A DNA stretch of 64,000 bases from an uncultured bacterium (GCA_905214195.1 CAJMLH010000005.1:315-64314); one strand, 5' to 3'. Positions 40,587 through 60,077 are shown, numbered from the stretch's first letter. Numbers and translations are program-made. The notes: generated by a model from the sequence alone, not told the origin.

Positions 40587-41780
40587 ATGTTAACAGAGCC
40601 CGATAGTTTACCTGTGCGATTATGTATAATAATAATTTTTATAGCAATACACGGATTTTTTACAGCAGTAAATACAGCTATGATTTCATCAAGCCGTATT
40701 ATAGAAAAAGATCAGGCTGCAATAAGACTAATACAGGTTGTTTCATGTATAGCCGGAGCATGGTTGTCCTTATATGATTGGAAAATCGCTGTAATGTATG
40801 TAATCTTTTTCACGATATTCGCTCAGTATTTTCCTCACAAAATAGGACTTCAGCACGATGAGGGTATAACAAATAAACTCTCCGGATTTATTGAAACATT
40901 ATCAACGATATTGAGGCCGATTACTGCAATACTTATGCTTATCGCGAATGCTTTTTTGAAACTGTTTAAGCAAAAGACCCATGTAGAAGATGAGGCCTTT
41001 TCAGAAGAAGATGTTATGTCAATGCTTAAGGTGGGTCGTGAATCCGGAGTGCTTAAAGAAGAGGGCACCAAGATGATAAATTCAATCTTTGCCTTTGATG
41101 ATAAGCTGGCATACGAAATAATGACGCCGAGAACAGATGTATTTCTGATAGATATAGAAGATTCACCGGAAGAATATCTTGACGAACTGATGAAACTCCG
41201 ATATTCCAGAATACCTGTGTGCAAAGGCGACAGCGATAACATAATAGGAATACTGCATATAAAAGACTATTTGATAAAGGCTCGTGAGACAAGTTTTGAA
41301 AATGTGGATATAGAGGGGATCCTCAGAAAGGCTTACTTTGTTCCCGATACTAAGAATATAGATTCACTTTTCTTTGAATTGCAGATGTCAAAACAGCAAA
41401 TAGCCGTACTCATAGACGAATACGGCGGATTCAGCGGTATAGTTACCATGGAAGACATAATAGAACAGGTCATGGGTGATATAGACGACGAATATGATGA
41501 AGAAGAGGAAATCATAGATAAGATTGACGATAACACTTATCTGGTAGACGGTGATGTGGATTTAGATGACCTTGATGAAGAAATAGGTATAGATTTAAAA
41601 TCAGATACCAGTGAAACAATCGGTGGATTTTTGATTGATATTTTGGGAGAAATTCCTGACGAAAGAGATATGGGCAGAATAATTGAATTTGAAGATTACA
41701 AGTTCAAGATAATGTCCGTCAAAGAAAGAAGAATAGAGCGTGTTAAAATCTATATGCTTGATAAAAAAAAGATTAATTGA
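40587..41780 (+). CDS. hemolysin/CNNM family protein (DUF21 membrane domain + CBS pair + CorC_HlyC)
   Basis: 397 aa with a 4-TM N-terminus followed by a CBS pair and a CorC C-terminal domain. Confidence 0.85.
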   Translation: MLTEPDSLPVRLCIIIIFIAIHGFFTAVNTAMISSSRIIEKDQAAIRLIQVVSCIAGAWLSLYDWKIAVMYVIFFTIFAQYFPHKIGLQHDEGITNKLSGFIETLSTILRPITAILMLIANAFLKLFKQKTHVEDEAFSEEDVMSMLKVGRESGVLKEEGTKMINSIFAFDDKLAYEIMTPRTDVFLIDIEDSPEEYLDELMKLRYSRIPVCKGDSDNIIGILHIKDYLIKARETSFENVDIEGILRKAYFVPDTKNIDSLFFELQMSKQQIAVLIDEYGGFSGIVTMEDIIEQVMGDIDDEYDEEEEIIDKIDDNTYLVDGDVDLDDLDEEIGIDLKSDTSETIGGFLIDILGEIPDERDMGRIIEFEDYKFKIMSVKERRIERVKIYMLDKKKIN

Positions 41781-41875
41781 TTTTCAATGCCCTGTTTGAT
41801 AAAATTATACTAATGTACTTGAGTGTCCTTACATAGGACAAAATGGATGTATTTTATTTTTTGAGAGGTACTAAT

Positions 41876-42394
41876 ATGAGTGAAAAAGTATGTAACTGCA
41901 ATTGTGCCGAAAACAGAAAGGAACAGTTTAAAGAACTGCAGCCTGTTTTAGACCAGTATGCAAAGGTGCCGGGTAGCTTGATAACTATCCTGCAAAAAGC
42001 TCAGGATATTTACGGTTATCTTTCCATAGATACCATAAATTACATATCCGATGCTACAGGTATCAAACCTGCTAAAATTTACGGTGTAGCCACTTTCTAT
42101 GCACAGTTCAGATTGCAGCCTATAGGCAAATATCTTGTAATGCTTTGCCAGGGTACTGCATGTCATGTAAACGGTTCTGAAATGATAGAAGAAGCCGTAT
42201 GTGAACACCTGAACATAAAAGACGGAGAAACTACAGAAGACGGACTCTTTACTCTTAACAATGTTGCTTGTCTGGGTTGTTGCTCACTGGCTCCTGTTAT
42301 GATGATCAAGAGCGCTGACGGGGATGAAACTTACGGAAGCCTGACAAAGGACAAGGTTAAGCAGATCCTTGATGAAATAAGAGAAAGAGCATAG
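41876..42394 (+). CDS. NuoE/HydC-like [2Fe-2S] thioredoxin-fold subunit
   Basis: Cys ligands CQGTACHV...CLGCCSLAP, with a GAGAGG RBS. Confidence 0.85.
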   Translation: MSEKVCNCNCAENRKEQFKELQPVLDQYAKVPGSLITILQKAQDIYGYLSIDTINYISDATGIKPAKIYGVATFYAQFRLQPIGKYLVMLCQGTACHVNGSEMIEEAVCEHLNIKDGETTEDGLFTLNNVACLGCCSLAPVMMIKSADGDETYGSLTKDKVKQILDEIRERA

Positions 42395-42406
42395 GAGGTA
42401 AGAAGC

Positions 42407-44155
42407 ATGAGAGTAGTAGTAGGACAAGGCAGCTGCGGTATAGCATCAGGCGCTAAAAAGACCGCTGCCGAATTTGAAAAACAGATTGCGGACAAAAACC
42501 TCGGCATAAATGTTGAGACTACAGGATGTGTAGGAACTTGCTATTTAGAACCTATCGTTGATGTATATGACGACGACGGTAAGATGACAAGATATGTCAA
42601 AGTACAGCCTGCCGATGTAGAAGAAATAGTTGAAAGCCATCTGATAAACAAGACAGTTGCGGAAGACAAGTCCATTTCAAAAGAAGATGAACAGTTCGTA
42701 GCTAAGCAGCAGAGAGTAGTTTTGAGAAACTGCGGAGTTATAAATCCGGAAGATATTAACGACTACATCGCTGTAGACGGATATAAGGCAATTGAAAAGG
42801 TTCTTACATCCATGAAGCCTGAAGATGTAATAGAAGAAATTAAGGTTTCCGGCCTCAGAGGAAGAGGTGGTGCGGGATTCCCGACTTGGTTCAAATGGAA
42901 TGCCGCAAAGCAGAGTCCCGGAACTGAAAAATATCTGGTATGTAATGCCGACGAAGGAGACCCGGGTGCTTTCATGGACCGTTCCGTTCTTGAAGGAGAC
43001 CCTCATTCTCTAATCGAAGGTATGATAATCGGCGGATACGCAATGGGAGCTTCTCAGGGCGTTATATACTGCCGTGCCGAATATCCTCTTGCTATCAAGA
43101 GACTTGAAATAGCTATGGCTCAAGCAAGAGAAAAAGGATATCTGGGAAAAAATATATTCAACAGCGGATTTGATTTTGATATCTATATCAAGGCAGGTGC
43201 AGGAGCATTCGTATGCGGTGAAGAAACTGCTCTTATCGCTTCACTTGAGGGTGAAAGAGGTATGCCGAGACTTAAACCTCCTTTCCCTGCTGCAAAAGGA
43301 TTCTGGCAGAAGCCTACAGATATCAACAATGTTGAAACACTGGCAAATGTACCTTGGATCATATATAACGGCGGTGAAGCTTTCGGTTCAATGGGAACTG
43401 AAAAGAGTAAGGGTACAAAAGTATTCGCTTTAGCAGGTAAGATTAAGAAAGGCGGACTTGTTGAAGTTCCGATGGGTCTTACTCTTAAAGATGTAATCTT
43501 CGGTATCGGCGGCGGTATTAAGAATGACAGAAAATTCAAAGCCGTACAGATGGGAGGACCTTCCGGCGGATGTATTCCGGCAGAACTTATAGATACTCCT
43601 GTAACTTATGAAGATATAAATAAGACAGGCGCCATCGTAGGTTCCGGCGGTATGATAGTTATGGACGAAGACACTTGCATGGTAGACATGGCAAGATACT
43701 TCCTCAACTTTACTCGTGATGAATCATGCGGTAAATGTAACTACTGCCGTATAGGTACCAAGAGAATGCTTGAGATATTAGAAAGAATAACAAGAGGAGA
43801 AGGACAGGACGGCGACATAGAAAAGCTTGAAGAACTGGCTATGAAAATAAAAGACGGTTCTCTCTGCGGTCTGGGACAGACTGCTCCTAACCCTGTTCTG
43901 ACTACTCTGAAATACTTCAGAAACGAATATGAAGACCATATCTACAATCATAAGTGTACTGCCGGTTCATGTAAAGCCCTGGTTACTTACACCATCACAG
44001 ATAAGTGTACAGGATGTACAGCTTGTTCCAGAAAGTGCCCTGTAGGCGCAATTACAGGAACAGTAAAGAATCAGCATGTAATCGACAAAGATAAGTGTAT
44101 CAAGTGCGGTAAGTGTCTTGAAACATGTAGATTTGGCGCAATAGAAAAGAAATAG
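42407..44155 (+). CDS. NuoF/HydB-like NADH-binding FMN/[4Fe-4S] subunit with N-terminal [2Fe-2S] and C-terminal 2x[4Fe-4S] domains
   Basis: Contains an FMN/NADH-binding region (GRGGAGFPTWFKW), the SLBB and CGKCNYC cluster-N3 region, and a C-terminal ferredoxin pair CTGCTAC...CIKCGKC. Confidence 0.85.
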   Translation: MRVVVGQGSCGIASGAKKTAAEFEKQIADKNLGINVETTGCVGTCYLEPIVDVYDDDGKMTRYVKVQPADVEEIVESHLINKTVAEDKSISKEDEQFVAKQQRVVLRNCGVINPEDINDYIAVDGYKAIEKVLTSMKPEDVIEEIKVSGLRGRGGAGFPTWFKWNAAKQSPGTEKYLVCNADEGDPGAFMDRSVLEGDPHSLIEGMIIGGYAMGASQGVIYCRAEYPLAIKRLEIAMAQAREKGYLGKNIFNSGFDFDIYIKAGAGAFVCGEETALIASLEGERGMPRLKPPFPAAKGFWQKPTDINNVETLANVPWIIYNGGEAFGSMGTEKSKGTKVFALAGKIKKGGLVEVPMGLTLKDVIFGIGGGIKNDRKFKAVQMGGPSGGCIPAELIDTPVTYEDINKTGAIVGSGGMIVMDEDTCMVDMARYFLNFTRDESCGKCNYCRIGTKRMLEILERITRGEGQDGDIEKLEELAMKIKDGSLCGLGQTAPNPVLTTLKYFRNEYEDHIYNHKCTAGSCKALVTYTITDKCTGCTACSRKCPVGAITGTVKNQHVIDKDKCIKCGKCLETCRFGAIEKK

Positions 44156-44171
44156 GGGAGGAGGAAAAAAT

Positions 44172-47100
44172 ATGAACAAGTTCAGACTTAATATAAACGG
44201 CAAAGAAGTAACAGGCGTTGCCGGTCAGACCATTCTGGAAGTTGCAAGAGAAAACGACATTTTTATTCCTACTCTGTGCTATGACGAAAGAACCAAAATT
44301 TACGGTTCCTGCGGACTGTGTATGTGCGAAGTTGAAGGAAATCCTAAACTTTGCAAAGCTTGTGCAACAGAAATCGCACCGGGAATGGTTATCAGAACAA
44401 ATACAGAAAGAGTAATCGAGTCCAGAAAAACCAATCTGGAACTGCTTCTTTCAAATCATACGGGAGATTGCAGACCTCCTTGCGTACTGGCTTGTCCGGG
44501 ACAGACAGACTGTCAGGGATATGTTGGATTGATTGCCAACGGAGAATACGAAAAAGCTTTAGAATTGATAAAGGATAAAATTCCGCTTCCTGCATCACTG
44601 GGAAGAGTTTGTCCTCATCCATGTGAAGAAGCATGCAGAAGAGGTCTTGTAGACGAACCTGTTTCAATTCAGCAGCTCAAGAGATTTGCAGCAGATGTGG
44701 ACCTTGAGGGAGATGTATTTGTTCCTGAATGTGAAGAAGCAACAGGCAAGAGCGTTGCTGTCATCGGCGGCGGTCCTATGGGATTATCAGCTGCTTACTT
44801 CTTAAGACAGATGGGACATGATGTTACTATATTTGAATCAATGCCTAATGCAGGAGGTATGCTCAGATACGGAATTCCTGAATACAGACTTCCTAAAGCT
44901 GTTTTAGATGAAGAAATTGCAACTATCGAAAGCATGGGTGTTGAAATAATCACCAATACTAAAGTAGGGGCAGACATACCTTTTGAAACTATCAGAAGCG
45001 ATTACGACGCTGTTCTCCTTGGTATCGGAGCTTGGGTATCCACAGGTGTGGGATGCAAGGGTGAAGATGCAGAAGGCGTTATCGGCGGTATTGATTTCCT
45101 CAGAAGAGTAGTAAGAAATGAAGAAATCGGAATGGGCAAAAAAGTTGCCATAGTCGGCGGAGGAAACACCGCTATGGACGCATGCAGAACTGCTGTAAGA
45201 CTGGGTGCAGACAAGGTTTACAACATCTACAGAAGAACTAAGGATGAAATGCCTGCCGACATGGTGGAAATCGAAGAAGCCGAGGAAGAAGGCGTAATCT
45301 TCAAAAACCTTACAAATCCTATAGAAGTAATCAAAGATGAAAACGGTCATGTAAAACAAGTTGTTCTTCAAGTTATGGAGCTTGGCGAACCTGATGCCTC
45401 CGGCAGAAGAAAACCTGTTCCTGTTGAAGGAAAAACTGAAACTCTTGACATAGATACCATGATTCTTGCCATAGGTCAGGCAGTAGACGCTACAATGTTT
45501 GACTGCGATAAGACAAGAAAGAATGCTATAGCATATGACCCTGACACATTTATGACCAGCATTCCGGGTGTATTTGCAGGCGGAGACTGCGGTAATGATA
45601 AAATTTCAATTGCTATCGAAGCTATCTCTGATGCAAGAAAAGCAGCTGACAGCATAGACGCATACCTTTACGGAGAAATTCTCAAATACGAAAAGCCTTA
45701 TGTAGTAGAAAGAGATGATATTACAGAAAAGACTTTTGAAGACAGAGAAAGAATGTGCAGACCTGAAATCCCGCAGCTTTCTCCTGAAGAAAGAAAAGAT
45801 AATTTCAGCGAAGTTATTCCTTGCGGATTCACAGAAGAACAGGCTGTTGCAGAAGCCTCAAGATGTCTTGAATGCGGATGCCACGACTACTTTGAATGTA
45901 AACTGATTGATTTTGCAAACCAGTATGATGTTCATCCTGAAAGATTCGCAGGCGAAAAGAATGCTATAGAATTTGAAGATAATCATCCGTTCATCGTTCG
46001 TGACCCTAACAAGTGTATACTCTGCGGACTTTGCGTAAGAGTCTGCGACGAAGTTATGGGAGTAGGTGCTTTAGGTCTTGTACACAGAGGTTTCGATACT
46101 GTAGTTAAGCCTAATATGGAAAAACCTCTTATCGAATCGGGATGTATATCCTGCGGTCAGTGCGTAAGCGTATGTCCTACAGGAGCTCTTCAGGAAAGAA
46201 CTACAATGATAAAGGAAACTCCTGTGGAAACAGAAGTAACCGATACAACATGCTCTTACTGTTCAGTAGGATGCAGCCTCAAGCTGGAATCATGCGGAGA
46301 TATGCTTATCAAGGCTAACCCTGACAAAGAAGGTGCAGTAAATAAAGGTCTCATTTGCGGTAAGGGTAAGTGGGGATTTGACTGCTCAATGTTAGAAGAT
46401 AAACTTGAAGATCCGCTTGTTAAGGAAGACGGAAACTTCAGAGAAGCTGATTATCATGAGGTACTCGTTCTGATTGCCAAGAGATGTCAGTCCATCGCTG
46501 CCAAATACGGAAAAGACTCCGTTGCTGTAGCGGTTTCCGACAGATACACAAACGAAGAAGCTTACGCTGTTAAGATGATGGCGGAAGCTATGGGAGCAAA
46601 GGTTCTCTGTATGAACAACAGAGAAAGCGGTCTCAAGGCTGTAACAGGTCTTGACGCTTCACCTAACACTATAGATGAACTGCTTTCAACCAACTTAATT
46701 CTTAAAGTAGGCTTTGAAGATGCAAAATCAAGAGTAATAGCGCTCAAGATTAAGCAGGCAGAAGAAGCAGGAGCTAAAGTAGTAACTCTTTGCAACGGTG
46801 AAAACAGCCTCGGTTTCCTCAAAGAAATCGCAAAAGCTATTATAGACAGCGGAAAGGCTAAGAAAGTTTCAGGATACGACGAATTTGCAGCATCTCTTGA
46901 CAATGTTAAGGTAAGCGATGAAGCTAAGGCTATCGCAGACCAGTATCTGGCAGCCAAAAAGGCTATGATAGTTTACCAGCAGAACTTCCTGACTGTAGAC
47001 GGCGCTAAATTAGTTGCAGATATCGCAATGCTTTCCGGTCATATCGGAACTCCAAGAGACGGTATACTGCAAGTTAAGGCAAAGAACAATTCACAAGGTC

Positions 47101-47633
47101 TCATCGACATGGGAATCACCGCAGGCAGTGAAGCTCTTGAAGGAGTCAAGGCTCTCGTAGTATTCGGTGAAAACGCAGACATCGACACTGAGTCTCTTGA
47201 ATTCTTAGCAGTATGTGATACTCACATGACTGAACTTGGTGCTAAGGCTAATGTAGTAATTCCGGGAACAGGTTTTGCTTCAGTTAACGGTACTTTCACC
47301 AATACAGAAAGAAGAATGCAGCTTGTACAGGCAGCTATCGACGAAGATATCCTGTTCAGCAACTGGGAAGTTGCAGCTGAAATCGCTCATATATTTGAAG
47401 TTGATTTTGCATGGGACGGAACAGACGACATATCTGACGAAATGTGCGACACTGTAGACGCATATAAATATGCTCAGATAGGTGAAGTTTTGGGCGGAGT
47501 GCTCAAACCTTCAGAAGATGCTGCATTAGTTGCAGTAGCTGATGGTTCTGTAGTAGACGAACTACCTTGCACAGACAGCCTGATGCAGGTTATCTCAATG
47601 AGATTGCCTAAACCGGCTAATCCAACAGCATAA
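44172..47633 (+). CDS. multidomain Fe-S flavoprotein: [2Fe-2S] - GltD-like NAD(P)H/FAD oxidoreductase - 2x[4Fe-4S] - truncated molybdopterin-oxidoreductase-like domain (NuoG/HydA-like without H-cluster)
   Basis: 1153 aa. It has GGGPMGLSAAYFLRQMGHDVTIFE and VAIVGGGNTAMDA dinucleotide folds, CILCGLCVRVC/CISCGQCVSVCP ferredoxin motifs, and a TTCSYCSVGCSL MopB-type Fe4S4 motif. No TSCCP/MPCxxK H-cluster motifs are present. Confidence 0.8.
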   Translation: MNKFRLNINGKEVTGVAGQTILEVARENDIFIPTLCYDERTKIYGSCGLCMCEVEGNPKLCKACATEIAPGMVIRTNTERVIESRKTNLELLLSNHTGDCRPPCVLACPGQTDCQGYVGLIANGEYEKALELIKDKIPLPASLGRVCPHPCEEACRRGLVDEPVSIQQLKRFAADVDLEGDVFVPECEEATGKSVAVIGGGPMGLSAAYFLRQMGHDVTIFESMPNAGGMLRYGIPEYRLPKAVLDEEIATIESMGVEIITNTKVGADIPFETIRSDYDAVLLGIGAWVSTGVGCKGEDAEGVIGGIDFLRRVVRNEEIGMGKKVAIVGGGNTAMDACRTAVRLGADKVYNIYRRTKDEMPADMVEIEEAEEEGVIFKNLTNPIEVIKDENGHVKQVVLQVMELGEPDASGRRKPVPVEGKTETLDIDTMILAIGQAVDATMFDCDKTRKNAIAYDPDTFMTSIPGVFAGGDCGNDKISIAIEAISDARKAADSIDAYLYGEILKYEKPYVVERDDITEKTFEDRERMCRPEIPQLSPEERKDNFSEVIPCGFTEEQAVAEASRCLECGCHDYFECKLIDFANQYDVHPERFAGEKNAIEFEDNHPFIVRDPNKCILCGLCVRVCDEVMGVGALGLVHRGFDTVVKPNMEKPLIESGCISCGQCVSVCPTGALQERTTMIKETPVETEVTDTTCSYCSVGCSLKLESCGDMLIKANPDKEGAVNKGLICGKGKWGFDCSMLEDKLEDPLVKEDGNFREADYHEVLVLIAKRCQSIAAKYGKDSVAVAVSDRYTNEEAYAVKMMAEAMGAKVLCMNNRESGLKAVTGLDASPNTIDELLSTNLILKVGFEDAKSRVIALKIKQAEEAGAKVVTLCNGENSLGFLKEIAKAIIDSGKAKKVSGYDEFAASLDNVKVSDEAKAIADQYLAAKKAMIVYQQNFLTVDGAKLVADIAMLSGHIGTPRDGILQVKAKNNSQGLIDMGITAGSEALEGVKALVVFGENADIDTESLEFLAVCDTHMTELGAKANVVIPGTGFASVNGTFTNTERRMQLVQAAIDEDILFSNWEVAAEIAHIFEVDFAWDGTDDISDEMCDTVDAYKYAQIGEVLGGVLKPSEDAALVAVADGSVVDELPCTDSLMQVISMRLPKPANPTA

Positions 47634-47650
47634 ATTTTAAAAACACATAT

Positions 47651-47684
47651 AAAGCGCCTCTTATCTACAGGAGGCGCTTTTATC
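47651..47684 (+). terminator. intrinsic terminator (aaagcgcctc / gaggcgcttt, T-tract)
   Basis: 10-bp perfect stem followed by TTTTAT. Confidence 0.8.
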
Positions 47685-47719
47685 TATTTAATTATACAAG
47701 GTGAGAAAGGAAGCGTATT

Positions 47720-48289
47720 ATGAAGCCGAGAAATTTATTGGATATACTTGCTGTAGCCGAAAGACTTAAGGATACTCTGCGCCATTGTTATACATCTAAA
47801 GGAAGACACGAAAGCGTCGCCGAGCATAGCTGGATGATGACTTTAATGGCTTTTTTCATGAGAGACCAATTTCCCGAAGCCGATATGGATAAAGTAATAC
47901 GAATGTGTATTATACACGATTTGGGAGAGTGCTTCACAGGCGACATACCAACCTTTGACAAAAATAAAGAGGACGAAAAAACAGAAGAACAGCTTCTTAA
48001 ACAGTGGGTAGATTCTCTTCCGGAAGAATACAGCCAAGAGTTAAGACAGCTTTACAGCGAAATGGAGCTTAGGGAAAGCAGAGAAGCCAAGATATACAAA
48101 GCCATAGACTCTCTGGAGGCTCTTATACAGCATAACTTTTCGGATATTTCAACATGGATTCCAAAAGAATACAGCCTCAATATGACTTATGCCGATGACA
48201 AGGTGGAATTTTCAGATTATCTCAAGGAGCTTCGCAGCGAAATAAGAGAGGATACAATCTTAAAGATAGAGGAGGAAAAAGAAAGATAA
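47720..48289 (+). CDS. HD-domain phosphohydrolase (YfbR-like 5'-deoxynucleotidase family)
   Basis: HD motif (SVAEHSWMMT...IIHDLGE). Confidence 0.8.
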   Translation: MKPRNLLDILAVAERLKDTLRHCYTSKGRHESVAEHSWMMTLMAFFMRDQFPEADMDKVIRMCIIHDLGECFTGDIPTFDKNKEDEKTEEQLLKQWVDSLPEEYSQELRQLYSEMELRESREAKIYKAIDSLEALIQHNFSDISTWIPKEYSLNMTYADDKVEFSDYLKELRSEIREDTILKIEEEKER

Positions 48290-48335: not shown

Positions 48336-48510
48336 TATATTAAAGATATTGTTAGAAACACTTAAGAGTGTATGATATGAGGGTAATTATAATAACTTAC
48401 TATACAAAAATTCCGGCAATATGCTTATTACTAATTATTGTCATAGACTTATACAACTTCCTATATTAAAAAACTCATGAAAATAACACCTTGAATTACA
48501 GAAAGAGTTA

Positions 48511-48540
48511 CAAAAGGAGACGGCCAATGACTACCAATAA
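48511..48540 (+). repeat. copy 1 of a 30-nt exact repeat (RBS plus first 5 codons MTTNK)
   Basis: caaaaggagacggccaatgactaccaataa, identical to 49592-49621. Confidence 0.9.
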
Positions 48541-49585
48541 AAAGATGGCAGTACTCATTTTCTTAATGTTTATTTTGCTGGCAACAGTAGGATGTGCCAC
48601 TAAGACAGAGTCGGATAAAATCCATGAAATAAGTCTCCCCAATGAGGATATTGTGGTAATGCAGATGAAATTCGATGAAAATCAAAGGCTTTTGATAGCC
48701 GGCTTTGAAAGAAACGAAGACAACTCAGCAGTCACGGCATCTGTTTGGAGAACGGATAATCATGGGGAATCATGGGAATCTCTCTATGAAAAGGCATTCC
48801 ACTCTGAAAAACCCGGAGAGACTTTAGTAGATACAGAGGTGTATTTTACCGACGACGGTTTGCTGATGAGTGAAGTAACTTTTACCTTGGAAAATATCTC
48901 TGATATGTCCAGAAAGATGTATTATGTAAAAAGCTTTGAAACGGGAGATACTGAGGAGATATTAACCTCAATAAATGTTAATTCTGTAAGCGATATTAAA
49001 TTTATCTCAGAAGAAGCAGTATATGCACTTGACTATAGAAGCAGAGATTTTCTGAAAATAAATATTTTGACAGAAGAGGTAGAAAAGATTGAGCTGCCGC
49101 AAATTAAAAGCATAATATATGATTTTTATAACGACACCTGTGTACATTTTGCATATTATATCGACGAAGAATATTTGAACGAACAAGAACTTCAAGCCGA
49201 AAACATAGATTCCGATGATACGAAAGAAATTTATGAAAATTGTACGGCGGGAATCAGATACGATCTTCAAAAAGAGCAGATAGTTAACTCTCCTGTAATG
49301 AAAGATTTTGGCACATATATGTTCATTAAAAATGCTGAGACAGACTATGAACACAGTATATCTTTGGCTGCGGCATCGGAAGAAGATAAGTACTACTTTT
49401 TATACGATGAGGGTCTTTTTAAATTTGATGAAAACGGAGAAAGCCTGCTCTATAAAGATGATCAATGGAAAAAAAGATATGGTGAGTTGGAAATTCTGTA
49501 CATAGATGATAACGATATATATATACAAGCTTTTGAAAAGAAGGGGAATTCCCGGAACCACCTTTTTAAAATAAGTATAGCATAG
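48527..49585 (+). CDS. lipoprotein of unknown function (paralog A; Asp-box-like motif)
   Basis: Signal peptide with an LLATVGC lipobox and a WRTDNHGESWESLY motif. Paralogous to the 52639-53709 gene. Confidence 0.6.
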   Translation: MTTNKKMAVLIFLMFILLATVGCATKTESDKIHEISLPNEDIVVMQMKFDENQRLLIAGFERNEDNSAVTASVWRTDNHGESWESLYEKAFHSEKPGETLVDTEVYFTDDGLLMSEVTFTLENISDMSRKMYYVKSFETGDTEEILTSINVNSVSDIKFISEEAVYALDYRSRDFLKINILTEEVEKIELPQIKSIIYDFYNDTCVHFAYYIDEEYLNEQELQAENIDSDDTKEIYENCTAGIRYDLQKEQIVNSPVMKDFGTYMFIKNAETDYEHSISLAAASEEDKYYFLYDEGLFKFDENGESLLYKDDQWKKRYGELEILYIDDNDIYIQAFEKKGNSRNHLFKISIA

Positions 49586-51685: not shown

Positions 51686-52634
51686 AATATTGAATCTGAG
51701 AAAAGAATACGAAAAGGGTAAAACAGCGGTAGAGGACTTCACTCTTACTATACCGGATGGAGAACTGGCGGTCATAGTAGGACCGTCAGGCTGTGGAAAG
51801 TCTACCACCCTAAGAATGATAGCCGGGCTAATCCCGACGACTTCCGGCAGTATAATACTGGACGGCAGGGAGATAAGCAAGGTAAGCACAAGAGACAGAG
51901 ACATTGCGATGGTTTTTCAGAACTACGCTCTCTATGAAAATATGACCGTCTTTGGAAACATTGCCTTTCCCCTTAAAATACGCAAGGAAGAAAAGGAACA
52001 GATAATAGAAAAGGTAACCGGTATATCTAAAATACTCAAAATAGAAGATTTGCTGGACAGAAGACCCAAAACTCTTTCGGGAGGTGAAAAGCAGCGTGTC
52101 GCCATGGGTAGAGCGCTGGTGAGAAACCCAAAGCTGTTTCTGATGGACGAACCGCTTTCAAATCTGGACGCTCGACTTAAGACGGAGCTTAGGGAAGAAA
52201 TAAAGAGGATACAAAGAAAACTGGGAACGACTACGATTTATGTAACCCACGATCAGGAAGAGGCCATGAGCATTGCCGATACGATAATCGTCATGGCTGA
52301 TGGAAGAATAAAGCAAGTAGGAACACCGACAGAAATATACGAGAATCCTGTAGAACCGTCGGTGGCAGGTTTCTTCGGACAACCGGCAATGAATATCTGG
52401 AGCGAGTCCGGGCAAACGCTGGGTATAAGGCCTGAGGATATTATAATTTCAGATTACGAAAAAGACGGAGTCCCCGGAATAGTGAATGAACAGTATTACA
52501 GCGGAGACCACTGGATAATAAAGGTTGAGACGGAGAAAACGCTGATGACTGCCTTTAGCCCGTCGCCTTTACAGGAAAAAAGCAAGCTTTGGCTCAAATT
52601 ACCCGATGATAAGCTTCACCGATGGGAGGTGTAA
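51672..52634 (+). CDS. ABC transporter ATP-binding protein (MalK/UgpC-like)
   Basis: Walker A GPSGCGKST, signature LSGGEKQRV, Walker B LFLMDEPLSNLD, and a C-terminal TOBE-like domain. Confidence 0.9.
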   Translation: MAELKILNLRKEYEKGKTAVEDFTLTIPDGELAVIVGPSGCGKSTTLRMIAGLIPTTSGSIILDGREISKVSTRDRDIAMVFQNYALYENMTVFGNIAFPLKIRKEEKEQIIEKVTGISKILKIEDLLDRRPKTLSGGEKQRVAMGRALVRNPKLFLMDEPLSNLDARLKTELREEIKRIQRKLGTTTIYVTHDQEEAMSIADTIIVMADGRIKQVGTPTEIYENPVEPSVAGFFGQPAMNIWSESGQTLGIRPEDIIISDYEKDGVPGIVNEQYYSGDHWIIKVETEKTLMTAFSPSPLQEKSKLWLKLPDDKLHRWEV

Positions 52635-52638
52635 TATA

Positions 52639-52709
52639 ATGAAGAAAATACTCACATTGTTTATGACATTCATTCTTATTACAGGGCTTACAGGCTGCGG
52701 ACAAGATGA
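52639..52709 (+). repeat. copy 1 of a 71-nt near-exact repeat (2 mismatches) encoding the signal peptide MKKILTLFMTFILITGLTGCGQD
   Basis: Matches 53737-53807. Identity begins exactly at the ATG. Confidence 0.9.
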
Positions 52710-53709
52710 CTCTGAAACCGGGAGTTCCGGCAGAGAAGCGTCGGAAGTAAAGCTGCCGAAAGAAATCGACTACATTACCGATATGAAAGTGGATGAGAAC
52801 GGCTATATCACGCTGGCAGCATATGAGAGAAAGGGAGATTACAATTGTGTAATCAGCATTTCAAAAACTAAGGACGATGGAGAGTCGTGGGAGACTCTGT
52901 ACCAACGAGAAGTCTCGATTAAAGAAAGAGAAAATCACTTTACTGAAGCACATTTGTACTTTGGAGATTCAGGAATTTTCTTTGATGTGTGTGACTGGGA
53001 CAGTGAAGATTTGAGAAATTCCGTTAGAAAGCGTTATTATCTGAGAGACTTTGATAGCGAACCCGAAGAGTTCGATTTCAGCTGGACAGATTTTAGTATA
53101 GATGATGTAAATTACATAGACTTTGAAAATTCCTACGGTATGAAACTTTGGGGTGATTATGCGGAGAAAACCGAACTCTACCGCATGAATATAAAAGACA
53201 GACAAATTGAACAGGTACAGCTGCCCGAGGTCACCGGTCCGGATACCATGGAAAATGACGGCAAATATGTATATGTGCTGTATTATCCGGAAATTGAGGA
53301 AGAAGCCGCCACATTTTCAGCAGGACTAAAGCTGATGGAAAAAGAAATAAAAGAGAATGGCCACGGAATAAGATACGATATGAGAGAGAATAAGGTTCAT
53401 CAGTCAGATATCCTTGACAAGCTGGCAAAGAAAGCAATGCTCTGGGACAATATTGAGAATAATGACGACCAAAACTACTCAATGTATGCGGCAGATACTT
53501 ACTCGGAAGAAGAGAGATATTACATCATTAACGATTCCGGGCTTTGGCGTATAGATAAAGACGGCGAAACTTTAATCTATAAAGAAGAAAATTGGTTGAA
53601 AGAAAAATATTATTTAAACAATCTGACGGTTGGAAACGGCGCCGTATATTTTGCCGCTACTCCGGAGGGTGGTGAAATGAAGCTTTTCAAAGTTGCCGAC
53701 AATCAATAA
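52639..53709 (+). CDS. lipoprotein of unknown function (paralog B; Asp-box TKDDGESW)
   Basis: LTGC lipobox. Several blocks align with paralog A (GESWE(T/S)LY, IRYD..., and a C-terminal YY...D.G(L/W)...D..GE.L(L/I)YK). Confidence 0.65.
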   Translation: MKKILTLFMTFILITGLTGCGQDDSETGSSGREASEVKLPKEIDYITDMKVDENGYITLAAYERKGDYNCVISISKTKDDGESWETLYQREVSIKERENHFTEAHLYFGDSGIFFDVCDWDSEDLRNSVRKRYYLRDFDSEPEEFDFSWTDFSIDDVNYIDFENSYGMKLWGDYAEKTELYRMNIKDRQIEQVQLPEVTGPDTMENDGKYVYVLYYPEIEEEAATFSAGLKLMEKEIKENGHGIRYDMRENKVHQSDILDKLAKKAMLWDNIENNDDQNYSMYAADTYSEEERYYIINDSGLWRIDKDGETLIYKEENWLKEKYYLNNLTVGNGAVYFAATPEGGEMKLFKVADNQ

Positions 53710-53736: not shown

Positions 53737-53807
53737 ATGAAGAAAATACTCACATTGTTTATGACATTCATTCTTATTACAGGGCTGACAGGCTGCGGCC
53801 AAGATGG
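53737..53807 (+). repeat. copy 2 of the 71-nt signal-peptide repeat at the 5' end of the substrate-binding protein gene
   Basis: Matches 52639-52709. Confidence 0.9.
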
Positions 53808-54996
53808 ATCGGGCGGCAATGAAGAAACGGAACTCAATGTGTTTATGATGAATCCCGATATGTACATGGAGAGCTTTTTATCTTCCTACAGCGGAGAGGA
53901 GGGGCTCGTCACCACTAATGTAGAGATGGGATTGACTAACCCTAATATGGAGGTCGGCGATGTGCTTAAATTGCTGAACACACGGCTCATGAGTGACGAT
54001 GGGCCTGACATCATAGTAATGGACGACATAAATGCTGACGGATACATAGAATCGGGACAGCTTGCGGATCTCAGCGACATAATCAACAAAAGCAACGACC
54101 TTATAAATCCTTTGAAAGAGCAGGACGACGAGATATATTATGTTCCTCTCTCTTTCGGCGTAATAGCAGACTCAAAAAGCACCGGAACTGCGGTGGATTT
54201 TGAAGATATGGAAAAGTATGTATCTTCATTAAAAGCACAAGGCCTTAAGTCGGGAAACTTTGAAAACACTGCGGTTCTCTGGTACAAGACTGAAATAGAG
54301 CCGATAATAAAAGAGGAAAACAACCTGAGCAAAGAAGAACTTACCGGCTTTTACGAAAATGTCAAGGAACTAATGACCGTGACAGAATGGTACGGAAGAA
54401 ACCCGGCAAGGGCTTCTCTGTATCCCGGAACCTTTATGGTAAACCCTCTCATCGAATATTGGGATATATACGCAGATAAGATTGGTGCAGCAAGAAGCTA
54501 TATAACAAATATAAGTGATTTACATCAGCTATATCACGCCAAAAACGAGGGAAAACTGGAATTCAGCTACGGTAAAGCCGATGGCAAGACTGTATATATT
54601 CCTACATGCATAATTGCAGTGAATAACAACAGCAAGAACAAGGATGCCGCTTTTGAAATGGTAGAATACATGTTATCTGAGGAAGGTCAGAAAGATGTGG
54701 CTCAAAACGGTGGTTATCTGCCTGTCAACTATAAGGTTCTCAGAGACGAACTTGAAAACTGTCCGGAAACGAATGTCAGCATAAACGGAGTCGGAGCTGT
54801 TCTCAAACCTTTTGCAGCAAATGACATAGACGAGATTATGGAAGTGATAAAAAATCCGGAGTACGAGGCCTACAGTGACTCTTACCTCATGGAGATAATT
54901 CTCACCGGAGCTGCGGACTACGGCAACGGCGACGAAACTCTTGATTCCGCCGTGGAAAAGGCCATGAACAAGCTGAAAATCTATCTGACGGAATAA
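53737..54996 (+). CDS. ABC transporter substrate-binding lipoprotein (family 1, carbohydrate-type)
   Basis: 419 aa with a lipobox, an SBP_bac_1-like body, and the position typical of a sugar ABC operon. Confidence 0.8.
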   Translation: MKKILTLFMTFILITGLTGCGQDGSGGNEETELNVFMMNPDMYMESFLSSYSGEEGLVTTNVEMGLTNPNMEVGDVLKLLNTRLMSDDGPDIIVMDDINADGYIESGQLADLSDIINKSNDLINPLKEQDDEIYYVPLSFGVIADSKSTGTAVDFEDMEKYVSSLKAQGLKSGNFENTAVLWYKTEIEPIIKEENNLSKEELTGFYENVKELMTVTEWYGRNPARASLYPGTFMVNPLIEYWDIYADKIGAARSYITNISDLHQLYHAKNEGKLEFSYGKADGKTVYIPTCIIAVNNNSKNKDAAFEMVEYMLSEEGQKDVAQNGGYLPVNYKVLRDELENCPETNVSINGVGAVLKPFAANDIDEIMEVIKNPEYEAYSDSYLMEIILTGAADYGNGDETLDSAVEKAMNKLKIYLTE

Positions 54997-55257: not shown

Positions 55258-55296
55258 GACCTTGCTTCTTATTTCAGGTAGAAGCAGGGTCTTTTT
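55258..55296 (+). terminator. intrinsic terminator / attenuator (gaccttgcttct ... agaagcagggtc + TTTTT) upstream of leuA
   Basis: 12-bp stem with one G-U pair, 10-nt loop and U5. The upstream segment gtaagcaa (55229-55236) can pair with ttgcttct as an alternative anti-terminator. Confidence 0.6.
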
Positions 55297-55336
55297 AATA
55301 CTTAAACAGTTAATGCCAAAAGAAAGGAAATCTAAA

Positions 55337-57064
55337 ATGACAACAGAAATCAAAACCAAAGTTGCAGGTATGAAGAACCACACAAAATACAGTATAGGAT
55401 ACTTCATGCCGCCGACAGAATCCACAGATTGGGTAAAAAAAGACCATATCGACAAAGCTCCTTCATGGTGCAGCGTAGACCTGAGAGACGGAAACCAAGC
55501 ACTCGTTGTACCTATGAGCCTAAACGAAAAACTGGATTTCTTCAAGCTCCTATGCAACATCGGATTCAAGGAAATAGAAGTAGGCTTCCCGGCCGCTTCA
55601 GAAACCGAATATGAATTTCTGAGAAAACTCATAGAAGACGACCTTATACCTGAGGACGTAACCATACAGGTTCTTACTCAGTCAAGAGAACACATAATTC
55701 AAAAGACTTTTGAAGCGGTCAAAGGCGCCCGCAATGTCATAATACACCTTTACAACTCCACCTCTGTAGCTCAAAGACAGCAGGTGTTCAGAAAATCAAA
55801 ACAAGAAATAAAAGATATTGCAGTATTCGGTGCAAAGATGATAGATGAGTACGCAGAAAAAATGTCTGAAACCCACTTTACATTTGAATACTCACCGGAA
55901 AGCTTTACCGGCACGGAAATAGATTATGCCCTTGACATATGCAATGCAGTCATAGATATTTGGAAACCTCGAAAAGAGAGAAAAACCATAATCAATCTTC
56001 CTGCAACTGTATCCATGTCAATGCCTCATGTATACGCTTCCCAGATAGAATTCATGAGCAAGCATCTTAAATACAGAGAAAATGTAATACTTTCCCTTCA
56101 TCCTCACAACGACAGAGGAACAGCCGTTGCAGACTGTGAACTGGGAATTTTGGCAGGCGGAGACAGAATAGAGGGAACTTTGTTCGGCAACGGAGAAAGA
56201 ACAGGAAATGCCGATATAATCACGGTAGCTATGAATCTCTATTCCCATGGAGTAGACCCGGAGCTTGATTTTACCGATATGCCTTATATAGTTAAAAAAT
56301 ACGAAGAGTTTACCGATATGAAAGTTCCTCCAAGACAGCCTTACGGCGGAGAACTGGTATTTGCCGCTTTCTCAGGCTCACATCAGGACGCCATCGCCAA
56401 AGGTATGCACTATAGAGAAGAATTCGAGCCGGATAAATGGAATGTCCCTTATATTCCTATCGACCCGCATGATATCAGCAGAGAGTACGAAGCAGATGTA
56501 ATAAGGATAAACAGCCAGTCAGGCAAGGGCGGAGTCGCTTACATACTTGAAACAAACTACGGTTTCCATATTCCAAACGCCATGAGAGAAGAAATCGGTT
56601 ATATGATGAAACATGTTTCAGATGTAAACCACAAAGAACTTTCACCTGAAAAAATATATGAAATTTTCAGCAGCGAATATGTAAACAGGGCAGACAAATA
56701 TGTTCTTAAAGACGCAACCTTTAAGAGGCTGCCCCAGTCGGAAAGTCTTGGTGATAACGGAATAGAAGCCGATATCGTAACGGTAATAGACGGTAAGACA
56801 TACGCTCTTGCAGGAATCGGTAACGGGCGACTTGACGCAATAACAAACGCGCTCAGAAAAGGTCCTTACAAAATAGAATGTGATTTCGTGACTTATGCCG
56901 AACATGCCCTTGAATCAGAATCTAATTCAAGAGCGGCAGCCTATGTAGCTATATCCGATAAACAAGGTAACACTTACTGGGGAGTGGGCATCCACAACGA
57001 TATAATTTACGCATCGGTCAACGCACTGATGTCTGCCATAAACAGAGCATTTGCAAACAGATAA
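55337..57064 (+). CDS. leuA: 2-isopropylmalate synthase (long form)
   Basis: MTTEIKTK..., [13 protein letters not shown] and [11 protein letters not shown] motifs, and a C-terminal LeuA dimerisation/regulatory domain. Confidence 0.9.
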
Positions 57065-57078
57065 TAAGAGGTACTTAT

Positions 57079-58341
57079 ATGGGAATGACAATGACACAAA
57101 AAATCCTGGCAGACCATGCCGGACTCAAAGAAGTAAAACCGGGCCAGCTTATAGAAGCAAGGCTTGATATGGTTCTTGGGAATGATATAACTTCTCCCGT
57201 AGCCATAAACGAATTTGAGAAAGCAGGATTTGAGCAGGTATTCGATAAATCGAAGATTTCACTGGTTATGGATCACTTTACACCAAACAAGGATATAAAA
57301 GCTGCACAGCAGTGCAAACAAACCAGAACTTTTGCAAGAAAATTCGATATAGATAATTTTTTCGATGTAGGCAACATGGGAATAGAACATGCACTTCTTC
57401 CTGAACTTGGCCTTGTAGCGGCAGGTGAATGTATTATAGGTGCAGATTCTCACACATGTACTTACGGAGCATTGGGGGCATTTTCCACCGGTGTGGGAAG
57501 TACAGATATGGCCGCCGGAATGGCGACCGGAAAAGCATGGTTCAAAGTTCCGCCGGCAATTAAGGTCGAATTAAAAGGTGCGCCGCAAAAATTTGTCTCA
57601 GGAAAAGATGTAATACTTCACCTCATCGGTATGATAGGTGTAGACGGAGCCCTTTACAAATCTCTCGAATTCATGGGTGAGGGCATAAGCCACCTCTCAA
57701 TGGATGACAGACTTTGCATATCCAATATGGCTATAGAAGCCGGCGCCAAAAACGGAATCTTTGTGGTAGACGATATTACAAGAGAATACATGAAAGACAG
57801 AGTAAGCAGAGAATACAAAGTATTTACACCCGACGATGATGCTGAATACGATCAAACTATCGTCATAGATCTTTCAGAACTTAAGCCTACAGTAGCTTTC
57901 CCTCACTTACCTGAAAACACAAGAACAATAGATAAGGTTGGTGATGTGAAAATAGATCAAGTCGTGATAGGCTCATGCACCAACGGACGTCTTGAGGACA
58001 TGGAAGCCGCAGCAGAAGTTCTGAGAGGCAAAAAAGTTGCGCAGGATGTAAGATGTATAATAATACCTGCAACTCAATCAATCTATAAAGAATGTATCAA
58101 AAGAGGGTATATGGATATCTTTATAGACGCAGGCTGCGCCGTATCAACACCGACATGCGGACCTTGCCTCGGCGGATATATGGGTATTCTGGCAGAACAT
58201 GAAAGATGTATAGCAACCACAAATCGTAATTTTATAGGAAGAATGGGACATAACCTTTCAGAGGTATATCTGTCAAATCCTTTCGTAGCGGCAGCCTCTG
58301 CGGTTACAGGCAAAATAACAGATCCTAAGGAGGTAATGTAG
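57079..58341 (+). CDS. leuC: 3-isopropylmalate dehydratase large subunit (short aconitase-family LeuC)
   Basis: 420 aa with Cys ligands (SCTNGR, CGPCLG). Confidence 0.9.
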
Positions 58342-58821
58342 ATGAAAGCTCAAGGAACGGTTTTTAAATACGGAGACAATATCGATACGGATATAATCAT
58401 ACCGGCAAGATATCTAAACACCAGTGACAGCAAGGAGCTTGCGGTACATTGCATGGAACCGGTAGACGAAAACTTTTTCAAAAATGTAAAGGCCGGAGAT
58501 ATCATGGTAGGCGGACTTAATTTCGGATGCGGTTCATCCCGAGAGCATGCACCCATAGCAATTAAAGAATGTGGCATTTCCTGCGTTATAGCCAAATCCT
58601 TTGCCAGAATATTCTACAGAAATGCCATAAACATAGGACTTGCAATAATGGAATGTCCCGATGCGGCAGATGACATAGAAGCGGGAGATAAAGTATCTGT
58701 GGATTTTGAAACGGGAATTATAACAAACATTACTAAAAACAAAGAATACAAGGCCATGCCTTTTCCTGATTTCATAGATAATATAATCAAAAAGGGCGGA
58801 CTGCTCAATTCCATAAAATAA
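58342..58821 (+). CDS. leuD: 3-isopropylmalate dehydratase small subunit
   Basis: 159 aa with a swivel-domain motif ([10 protein letters not shown]). Confidence 0.9.
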
Positions 58822-58840
58822 AAAAGAAAGAGAGATAAAG

Positions 58841-60052
58841 ATGCTTACACTAAAAGCCTTTGAAGAAGCCGTTGAGGTAGTAAAAAAAGTAGCTATAGAA
58901 ACAGAACTTTTGTACAGCAGATTTCTAAGCGAGCAAACAGGAAACAAAGTATATCTGAAACCGGAAAACTTACAGATAACAGGTGCTTACAAACTAAGAG
59001 GAGCTTACTACAAGATAAGCACCCTTACTGAAGAGGAGCGTGCCAAAGGCCTTGTAACAGCCTCTGCCGGAAATCATGCACAAGGAGTCGCATACGCAGC
59101 TAAGGCTTACGGATGCAAGGCAATCATAGTAATGCCGACAACTACTCCTCTCATGAAAGTTGACAGAACCAAGAGCTATGGAGCAGAAGTTGTTCTTCAC
59201 GGAGATGTGTATGATGAGTCAGCGGCATATGCAGCCAAGCTTGCCGAAGAAAAAGGATATACATTTATCCATCCATTTGACGACCCGGCAGTAGCCACAG
59301 GTCAGGGAACAATAGCAATGGAAATTATAAAGGAACTTCCTCTTGTGGATTACATACTGGTTCCGGTCGGCGGCGGCGGACTTGCAACAGGAGTATCCAC
59401 TCTTGCAAAGCTTCTCAATCCAAAAATAAAAGTAATAGGAGTTGAGCCTGCAGGAGCAGCAAGCCTCAAAGCCTCTTTTGAAAAAGGCAAACCTGTAACT
59501 CTAAATCAAATCTCTACTATAGCAGACGGAACAGCAGTAAAAACTCCCGGACAAAAGATTTTCCCTTACCTTCAGCAAGGGCTTGATGATATAATAACTG
59601 TCGAAGACGATGAACTCATAGTATCATTTTTAGACATGGTGGAAAATCATAAACTCATAATAGAAAATTCGGGACTGCTTTCTGTAGCCGCCTTAAAGCA
59701 TCTTGATGTTAAAGACAAAAAAATCGTTTCTATCCTAAGCGGCGGCAATATGGACATAATTACAATGTCATCTGTAGTTCAGCTTGGTCTTATAATGAGA
59801 GACAGAATATTTACAGTTTCTGTACTTCTGCCTGATAAACCGGGAGAACTTGTAAGAGTAGCATCTACCATAGCAAAAGAGCAAGGCAATGTAGTAAAGC
59901 TTGAGCATAACCAGTTTGTAACGACCAACCGCACGGCTGCCGTGGAGTTAAAAATAACTATCGAAGCTTTTGGCAGTGAACATAAGAACAAAATATGTAA
60001 AGCTCTCAAAAACGCAGGCTATGACCCTAAACTGATAAGCGTTATAATGTAG
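58841..60052 (+). CDS. ilvA: threonine ammonia-lyase (biosynthetic-type with C-terminal ACT-like domain)
   Basis: PLP motifs ([14 protein letters not shown]) plus a roughly 80-aa regulatory C-terminal domain. Confidence 0.85.
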
Positions 60053-60077
60053 CCTGATTGAAAGGAGATATATCAGT

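Follow-up and report, generated by a model that had tools for sequence, protein, structure and literature searches.

The question raised by three adjacent genes on the plus strand of a 64,000-nucleotide stretch of DNA from an uncultured bacterium (GCA_905214195.1 CAJMLH010000005.1:315-64314; the whole stretch is referred to as the window) is which redox enzyme they encode. The first two genes specify a NuoE/HydC-like and a NuoF/HydB-like subunit, and the third a fusion of GltD-like and NuoG-like parts. A first reading of the sequence alone (the original prediction) had placed a three-gene NuoE/NuoF/GltD-fusion operon at 41876-47633 and had proposed a transhydrogenase of the Sporomusa type (Stn). 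Open reading frames (ORFs) and Pfam searches confirmed both the coordinates and the domains. With a probability of roughly 0.88, we conclude that the locus is a three-gene operon for a flavin-based electron-bifurcating transhydrogenase of the Stn/NfnABC type (Nfn-Bfu, Type 1 BfuABC), carried by an uncultured Anaerovoracaceae bacterium of the gut. The gene structure, the domain content, the full-length homology, the conservation of every cofactor ligand and the conserved synteny were observed directly; activity, direction, oligomeric state and metal content are predicted from the sequence.

Relationship to characterised transhydrogenases

When the three proteins were searched against all PDB sequences, each found its best solved-structure matches in 9BOV/9BP5 and 8OH5/8OH9, near full length. 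According to the corresponding papers, 8OH5/8OH9 are StnABC of Sporomusa ovata (Kremp 2020, PMC7483475; Kumar 2023, PMC10482914), and 9BOV/9BP5 are NfnABC of Caldicellulosiruptor saccharolyticus (Li et al. 2025, PMC11829005). The large subunit (stnC/nfnA, BfuA; 44172-47633, 1153 aa, 124.9 kDa) scored 1072 bits against 9BOV_A and 1063 bits against 8OH5_C. For the NuoF-like subunit (stnB/nfnB, BfuB; 42407-44155, 582 aa, 63.1 kDa), 909 bits against 9BOV_B and 908 bits against 8OH5_B were obtained over residues 1-580, and for the small subunit (stnA/nfnC, BfuC; 41876-42394, 172 aa, 19.0 kDa) 219 bits against 9BOV_C and 183 bits against 8OH5_A. These full-length matches and the Pfam domains also bore out the view that genes 1 and 2 are of the HydC/NuoE and HydB/NuoF type. 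The third-ranked structure was the archaeal 9N5U, Nfn-BfuABC of Thermococcus sibiricus. Formate dehydrogenases, complex I subunits, hydrogenases and NfnAB/GltD gave partial matches with far lower scores.

Identities were read off the HMMER alignments to the PDB sequences, in which the rebuilt lengths equal the alignment coordinates; they refer to the aligned parts and leave out the outer termini. The alignment with S. ovata StnA/B/C, proposed as a check by the original prediction, gave 58/68/48% identity with conserved Cys ligands. The corresponding values for C. saccharolyticus are 61/67/47% (small/NuoF-like/large). Between the two characterised enzymes themselves, identity amounts to 70/75/52% in the same order. 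In three-way alignments, each Cys common to both solved enzymes is present in the window proteins. Every defining feature of Stn/NfnABC that can be tested in a sequence was found, and no feature of a rival family was; what sets the window proteins apart from the characterised enzymes is minor.

The C. saccharolyticus enzyme shares the three subunits and the domain order with the window proteins (1178/584/176 aa compared to 1153/582/172 aa for the large, NuoF-like and small subunit), and the Fe-S ligands, Lys170 and the motifs for flavin adenine dinucleotide (FAD), NADPH and flavin mononucleotide (FMN) are all kept. It differs in the C-terminal ~90 residues of the large subunit, which diverge in the window protein, and in coming from a thermophile, whereas the window host is a gut mesophile. 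S. ovata StnABC has an equal architecture, including the numbering of Lys170, Cys114 and Arg239, a non-catalytic FdhF-like domain and near-equal masses (19/63.5/126.4 kDa for StnA/B/C; PMC7483475). Of the subunit sizes originally given as about 19, 63 and 127 kDa, the first two agree with our values, while gene 3 is slightly smaller, as listed above. In contrast to S. ovata, an acetogen in which Stn feeds the Wood-Ljungdahl pathway, the window is without any sign of acetogenesis, and its large subunit carries extra non-conserved Cys residues (Cys52, 61, 813 and others).

The archaeal T. sibiricus Nfn-BfuABC (9N5U) and NsoABC of Thermococcus litoralis belong to the same family, with the same reaction, and have kept the GltD-like module and the BfuBC core; T. 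sibiricus NfnA and NfnB scored 679 and 812 bits, respectively, with the window proteins. With ~200 residues fewer, the archaeal large subunit is without one cluster and without the long C-terminal region; the window protein belongs to the long, bacterial form. More distant are the HydABC hydrogenases of Thermoanaerobacter kivui (8A6T), Acetobacterium woodii and Thermotoga maritima. Their HydBC core is homologous to the small and NuoF-like subunits (HydB scores of 686-747 bits against the latter), but HydA has an H-cluster domain, in place of which the large subunit of the window carries a GltD-like NADPH module together with an FdhF-like domain.

Several points weigh against the assignment to Stn/NfnABC. 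The large subunit is just 47-48% identical to the characterised enzymes, and its last ~90 residues are unaligned. The activity here is assigned by homology to enzymes that are less than 70% identical, and the T. litoralis homologue NsoABC was originally described with a different activity (PMC7483475). The sequence does not reveal the in vivo direction or which metal occupies the B5 site of the NuoF-like subunit, a site that holds [2Fe-2S] in S. ovata and Zn in C. saccharolyticus, and any nfnAB, Rnf, hydrogenase or Wood-Ljungdahl genes would lie beyond the 64-kb window. Finally, the global geometry of an AlphaFold2 (AF2) model of the large subunit was poor, with a predicted template modelling (TM) score of 0.49 and a TM-score of 0.42 to the solved chains. 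The low TM-score can be attributed to the Fe-S linker region, which was predicted free of cofactors and with low confidence. The FdhF-like domain of the same model reached a predicted local distance difference test score of 85-94, and Foldseek returned 9BOV_A and 8OH5_C first (E = 0, ~1185 aligned columns). AF2 and Foldseek served as corroboration only.

Cofactor sites of the large subunit

Pfam identified Fer2_4, Fer4_20, Pyr_redox_2, Fer4_Nqo3/Fer4, Molybdop_Fe4S4 and Molybdopterin domains in the large subunit, as expected for a protein of 1153 aa described at the outset as having a [2Fe-2S] N-terminus, a GltD-like module and a truncated molybdopterin-oxidoreductase-like C-terminus. The two 4Fe-4S ferredoxin motifs counted in that description proved too few: the Cys motifs account for one [2Fe-2S] and six [4Fe-4S] clusters, and both bacterial cryo-electron microscopy (cryo-EM) structures likewise show one [2Fe-2S] and six [4Fe-4S] clusters in this subunit. 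Conservation was assessed across 113 aligned members: 110 diverse representatives, each 1000 aa or longer, together with the two references and the window protein. All 27 ligand Cys and His96 are kept relative to 8OH5_C and 9BOV_A and across these relatives, the cluster Cys being essentially invariant.

Residues 1-95 (44172-44456; Fer2_4) form a HydA/NuoG-type [2Fe-2S] domain with Cys36, 47, 50 and 64, which are invariant in 111/113 members. Residues 96-505 (44457-45686; Fer4_20 and Pyr_redox_2) are the GltD/NfnB(L)-like module. It contains ligands for two [4Fe-4S] clusters (His96-x3-Cys100-x3-Cys104-x3-Cys108-Pro, and Cys147/151/155 with Lys170), the GxGxxG motif for FAD at 199-204, the glycine-rich NADPH motif GGGNTA at 329-334, Tyr353-Arg354-Arg355 in the NADPH Rossmann fold, Arg239 and Cys114. 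A linker with a CxxCxCx5C cluster motif and a 2x[4Fe-4S] ferredoxin-like domain follow in residues 506-685 (45687-46226; Fer4_Nqo3/Fer4); their ligands, Cys565/568/570/576, Cys615/618/621/625 and Cys658/661/664/668, are invariant in 113/113. The remainder, residues 686-1153 (46227-47633; PF04879 and PF00384), is the FdhF/NuoG-like domain with the Molybdop_Fe4S4 cluster ligands Cys694, 697, 701 and 729 and a divergent tail from about residue 1060 to the end; in S. ovata, this region is a disordered C-terminus of 83 aa. All StnC motifs listed by Kremp 2020 (HxxxCxxxCxxxCP, CxxCxCxxxxxC, GxGxxG and the NADPH glycine motif; PMC7483475) are present.

The FAD-proximal cluster deserves separate mention. 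In C. saccharolyticus, this cluster (A7) is ligated by Cys108, Cys147, Cys151 and Lys170 (PMC11829005), and the four residues carry the same numbers in the window protein. Lys170, Cys114 and Arg239, which have been probed by mutagenesis in S. ovata, also stand at the same numbering as in S. ovata StnC; Lys170 has been described as strictly conserved in StnC, and its mutants are crippled. Lys170 was found in 111/113 relatives, and Arg239 and Tyr353-Arg354-Arg355 in 113/113. Cys114 occurs in just 18/113, among them the window protein and both characterised bacterial enzymes.

NfnAB (NfnSL) of T. maritima and Pyrococcus furiosus (4YLF, 5JCA) has an equal overall reaction, and residues ~100-505 of the window protein have a homologous counterpart in its large subunit (310 bits; Foldseek TM-score 0.76 to the target). 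In acetogens, Kremp et al. observed that Stn and Nfn almost exclude one another. Yet it is an unrelated type of complex, with two subunits, a bifurcating FAD and a Glu on the proximal cluster, and without a NuoE/NuoF core. An NfnAB identity, with an FNR-like small subunit and a large subunit of ~470 aa, was rejected: the window protein has Lys170 instead of Glu, and only residues ~100-505 are homologous. The window contains no second GltD-like, NuoF-like or FdhF-like gene, and no NfnA/S-like gene either.

Some database names suggest a different enzyme, namely an NAD(P)-linked formate dehydrogenase or a bifurcating [FeFe]-hydrogenase. The Molybdop_Fe4S4 and Molybdopterin domains fit a formate dehydrogenase, NuoE/NuoF partners also occur in FdsBG and HydBC, and Cys813 of the large subunit (46608-46613, Cys813-Met814) aligns with the Sec/Cys Mo ligand of formate dehydrogenases. 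The position expected to lack a Sec/Cys ligand is thus occupied by a Cys, but it is followed by Met814 instead of the catalytic His, and Lys969 takes the place of the formate dehydrogenase Arg. Moreover, Cys813 is shared by just 5/113 relatives and is missing from both characterised enzymes. Because a Met follows and so few relatives carry the Cys, its position is most likely coincidental. A Molydop_binding domain (PF01568) was not detected in residues 680-1153 even at E<=1, PF04879 and PF00384 being the only domains there; non-bifurcating FdsA and Nqo3 do carry a C-terminal pterin-binding barrel. The FdhF-like domain of S. ovata StnC is published as catalytically inactive. Given the missing Sec/Cys-His-Arg site, the missing pterin-binding barrel and the inactive S. 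ovata domain, a function as formate dehydrogenase (FdsABG or Fdh-Bfu) was rejected as far as the sequence can tell, in line with the initial view that a full catalytic domain is lacking. The motif search was likewise negative for TSCCP, MPCxxK and CxxGGG, the H-cluster motifs whose absence had been predicted, and no Fe_hyd_lg_C domain was found by Pfam in the window proteins, which rules out an [FeFe]-hydrogenase of the HydABC type. Taken together, the probability that the locus encodes either enzyme is close to negligible. H-cluster motifs, a full Mo-bisPGD domain and characterised formate dehydrogenases as best homologues had been named beforehand as findings that would speak against a Stn-type enzyme, and none of them was encountered; instead, StnABC (8OH5) and NfnABC (9BOV) are the best solved-structure matches end to end, with the cofactor ligands kept. 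We regard the FdhF-like domain as a non-catalytic scaffold that probably mediates tetramerisation, the predicted form being a tetramer of heterotrimers held together by the large subunit. In S. ovata, this domain and the side-branch clusters are required for tetramer assembly.

NuoF-like and small subunits, and the proposed mechanism

The NuoF-like subunit consists of Complex1_51K, SLBB, NADH_4Fe-4S and two C-terminal Fer4 domains (Pfam). An N-terminal thioredoxin-like domain (Cys10, 41, 45) precedes the FMN/NADH Rossmann core, which contains GLRGRGGAGFPT and has kept the FMN glycine loop. The B1 [4Fe-4S] cluster has Cys441, 444, 447 and 487 as ligands; Cys517 and Cys522 lie in the Zn-linker region, and the C-terminal 2x[4Fe-4S] ferredoxin-binding domain contributes Cys534-544 and 564-574. 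All Cys common to both solved NuoF-like subunits (21/21) are kept in the three-way alignment. At the B5 site, the protein has three Cys, as in S. ovata, and lacks the extra Cys22 of C. saccharolyticus NfnB, where the site was modelled as Zn; the window protein has Glu22 at this position.

The small subunit combines a four-helix N-terminal domain with a thioredoxin-like [2Fe-2S] domain (2Fe-2S_thioredx, PF01257, 6e-51). Its ligands, Cys91, 96, 132 and 136, have the same spacing as C74/79/115/119 of T. sibiricus NfnC. Alignments to 8OH5_B/9BOV_B and 8OH5_A/9BOV_C showed that the whole BfuBC core is kept: the FMN loop, B1, the Zn-linker Cys, the C-terminal 2x[4Fe-4S] domain and the small-subunit [2Fe-2S] cluster.

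This core bears on the idea that the complex, although homologous, works without tight coupling. It could then be a plain oxidoreductase between ferredoxin and NADP+ or between NADPH and NAD+, or could use NADPH to reduce another acceptor, for instance sulfur/polysulfide or oxygen, the activity first reported for T. litoralis NsoABC being of this kind. Nso is a close architectural homologue, with NsoC 40.6% identical to StnC, and S. ovata Stn also runs uncoupled downhill reactions at low rates (Kremp 2020, PMC7483475); the function at our locus is assigned by homology alone. On the other hand, all three characterised members (S. ovata, C. saccharolyticus and T. sibiricus) bifurcate, and Kremp et al. 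suggest that Nso is itself an Nfn (PMC7483475). The FMN loop, B1, the small-subunit [2Fe-2S] and the C-terminal 2x[4Fe-4S] domain are intact, and scores of 1063-1072 bits set the large subunit much nearer to the bacterial Stn/Nfn, the archaeal type reaching 679 bits. We consider an uncoupled enzyme very unlikely.

For a bifurcating transhydrogenase, the mechanism can be transferred from the solved homologues. NADPH would be oxidised at the FAD of the GltD-like module, a flavin that is presumably non-bifurcating. Single electrons would then move along the [4Fe-4S] cluster that has Lys170 as a ligand and along the large subunit's chain of clusters until they reach FMN in the NuoF-like protein. 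The electron pairs are predicted to be split at this point by FMN, the B1 [4Fe-4S] cluster and the small-subunit [2Fe-2S] cluster (the 'flavobicluster'). In the high-potential branch, NAD+ would be reduced at FMN; in the low-potential branch, electrons would travel via the small subunit's mobile, thioredoxin-like C-terminal domain to the C-terminal 2x[4Fe-4S] domain and on to ferredoxin. The overall reaction should be reversible, and its likely in vivo direction is NADH + Fd(red) + 2 NADP+ -> NAD+ + Fd(ox) + 2 NADPH. Formation of NADPH for biosynthesis is the likely direction in a fermenter. The non-acetogenic fermenter C. saccharolyticus offers a parallel to the window host, presumably a fermenter too: its enzyme was proposed to turn NADH and reduced ferredoxin into biosynthetic NADPH (PMC11829005). 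Because genes for peptide transporters, a peptidase and biosynthetic enzymes lie nearby in the window, such a role is plausible for a peptide-fermenting gut bacterium; nothing within the window points to acetogenesis.

A side feature of this locus is the conserved Cys-rich N-terminus of the small subunit, which reads MSEKVCNCNCAEN and contains Cys6-Asn-Cys8-Asn-Cys10 (CNCNC; 41891-41905, plus strand). The tail recurs as CxC, CxxC or CCC in most homologues (loci L002-L015, proteins P0271-P0390 and 8A6T_C). N-terminal Cys pairs or triples were present in 13/22 small-subunit genes adjoining StnC homologues, and 105 of the 116 best homologues of C. saccharolyticus NfnC have at least two Cys within the first 25 residues. 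The C. saccharolyticus small subunit itself also opens with a Cys pair (MSCPEC), close Caldicellulosiruptor NfnC homologues (97-99% identical) start with MSCPECEN, and T. kivui HydC (8A6T_C) opens with MCNCCC. In the cryo-EM structure of the C. saccharolyticus complex, the N-terminal 21 residues of NfnC are the sole untraced part (PMC11829005), and inductively coupled plasma mass spectrometry of this NfnABC found 3.0 Zn per protomer, compared to two modelled. No discussion of the tail was found in the main texts of PMC11829005 and PMC10021017, the structural papers searched for it. That it forms a so far unmodelled metal or redox-thiol site of Bfu enzymes is a speculative and rather unlikely proposal, for which the third Zn per C. 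saccharolyticus protomer would be a candidate occupant. The tail might occupy the cleft that separates the FdhF-like domain from the NuoF-like Rossmann fold and, from this position, could influence assembly or gating; metal binding, a thiol switch or a part in maturation are conceivable roles.

Operon, host and distribution

The three genes are close-packed at 41876-42394, 42407-44155 and 44172-47633, with spacings of 12 nt between genes 1 and 2 and 16 nt between genes 2 and 3, each containing a strong Shine-Dalgarno sequence (TAGGAGGT, GGGGAGGAGG). Gene 1 lies in a longer ORF (41843-42394); the internal ATG at 41876 is preceded by GAGAGGT, and homologues beginning with MSEK support this start. 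A consensus scan found a promoter-like site, TTGATT-17-TAAAAT with a TG extension (41777-41805, plus strand), in the 95-nt gap 3' of a CNNM/CorC-type gene. This is a consensus match only, and sites of this kind are no more frequent in the region than chance would give. A G+C-rich, intrinsic-terminator-like hairpin with a 12-bp stem (6 G-C pairs) and a T-rich tail follows 18 nt past the stnC stop (47651-47690, plus strand). Regulation by a Rex-type redox sensor was dropped: a Rex box (TTGTTAANNNNTTAACAA, at most three mismatches) was not found upstream of the operon, and across the window eight were found compared to 8.9 expected.

Upstream of the operon lie genes for RNase J, an Xaa-Pro peptidase, EF-P, MltG, a methyltransferase, a U32 peptidase and the CNNM/CorC-type protein; genes for an HD-domain protein and an ABC transporter follow downstream, and PolA, SecDF, RelA, tRNA ligases and leucine biosynthesis genes are found in the rest of the window. 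Since the flanks are housekeeping genes, the three genes look like a self-contained operon in a chromosomal region. These boundaries also concern the proposal that the BfuABC module works with an extra catalytic partner encoded elsewhere and that its GltD-like module does not serve NADP(H) turnover. The Bfu family is indeed modular, Type 2/3 members recruiting added subunits (PMC11829005), and only 64 kb of the genome are visible. However, the promoter-like site and the strong terminator bound the operon, housekeeping genes flank it, and the FAD, NADPH and Tyr-Arg-Arg motifs are intact and invariant. The stand-alone unit of NuoE-like, NuoF-like and fusion genes, in this order on one strand, recurs in 60/66 related loci with enough upstream DNA, which are spread over many phyla. 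Such a partner is therefore highly improbable, and we retain the assignment to a complete Stn/NfnABC enzyme.

Several further features of the window were recorded. The G+C content is 0.42-0.43 in 42000-48000 and 0.37-0.39 in the adjacent flanks, but it reaches 0.43-0.46 elsewhere in the window, so that the operon is not clearly anomalous. An ORF of 1412 aa (4424-8662, plus strand) contains two ATPase domains of the acyl-CoA dehydratase activase (BcrAD/HgdC) type; this large activator-like fusion is typical of anaerobes that ferment amino acids. Four ORFs of 364-421 aa (48491-49585, 52606-53709, 53737-54996 and 61163-62428, plus strand) had no NCBIfam match at the thresholds used, and two of them sit within an ABC-transporter cluster. 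A leucine/isoleucine cluster (55262-61154, plus strand) encodes 2-isopropylmalate synthase, isopropylmalate dehydratase, threonine ammonia-lyase and 3-isopropylmalate dehydrogenase, indicating that the organism is biosynthetically active, with NAD(P)H-dependent anabolism.

The exact large protein and variants 99-100% identical to it were found in metagenome-assembled genomes named Anaerovoracaceae bacterium. The host is therefore taken to be an uncultured gut bacterium from what was formerly Family XIII, an attribution that also draws on the 94% identity to Casaltella massiliensis; 'Firmicutes bacterium CAG:145' is another relative at this level. When 1.84 billion cluster representatives were searched exhaustively with HMMER, 6696 proteins reached E<=1e-30, the 150 best all scoring above 585 bits. 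In a scan of one genome per species, at least 588 loci were detected in Bacillota, Bacteroidales, Cloacimonadota, Dehalococcoidia, Terriglobia and others, and published surveys also call the family widespread (Kremp 2020, PMC7483475; Schut 2022, BfuB clade 53).

Two variants were observed among the related loci. Natural short large subunits stop directly behind the 2x[4Fe-4S] domain, so that all of the FdhF-like domain is missing, with NuoE- and NuoF-like genes still upstream (L030, 6001-8034, 677 aa; L033, L038-L040, L049, L063, L065 and L075; Ruminococcus, Oscillospiraceae and others). Since deletion of the FdhF-like domain abolished assembly in S. ovata, these short forms must assemble differently. 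In addition, GltD-NuoG-type fusions with 34-46% identity occur without upstream NuoE/NuoF genes (L067 of Aeromonas sobria, L076 of Vibrio tubiashii, L027 and L078-L080), probably representing a different, non-Bfu use of the fusion.

Public names of the identical and near-identical large proteins are 'FAD-dependent oxidoreductase', 'molybdopterin oxidoreductase', 'formate dehydrogenase major subunit' or 'uncharacterized', and no NCBIfam model reached its cut-off on the large subunit. The original prediction was thus right that the family is poorly annotated. The family is no longer obscure, as three cryo-EM structures and a family-wide survey exist. Biochemical, mutational and cryo-EM data are available from three organisms, and the locus therefore poses no new mechanistic question. 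What it provides is a correct functional annotation for a new member of a well-characterised and abundant family, not a new kind of system. While its interest to specialists is limited, this annotation puts right a systematic error in the naming of the operon, which in many anaerobes, gut Anaerovoracaceae among them, goes under 'FAD-dependent oxidoreductase', 'formate dehydrogenase' or 'NuoE/NuoF'. Such mislabelling hides a route that joins the NADH, NADPH and ferredoxin pools and skews metabolic models of gut fermenters, for which the corrected assignment should be useful.

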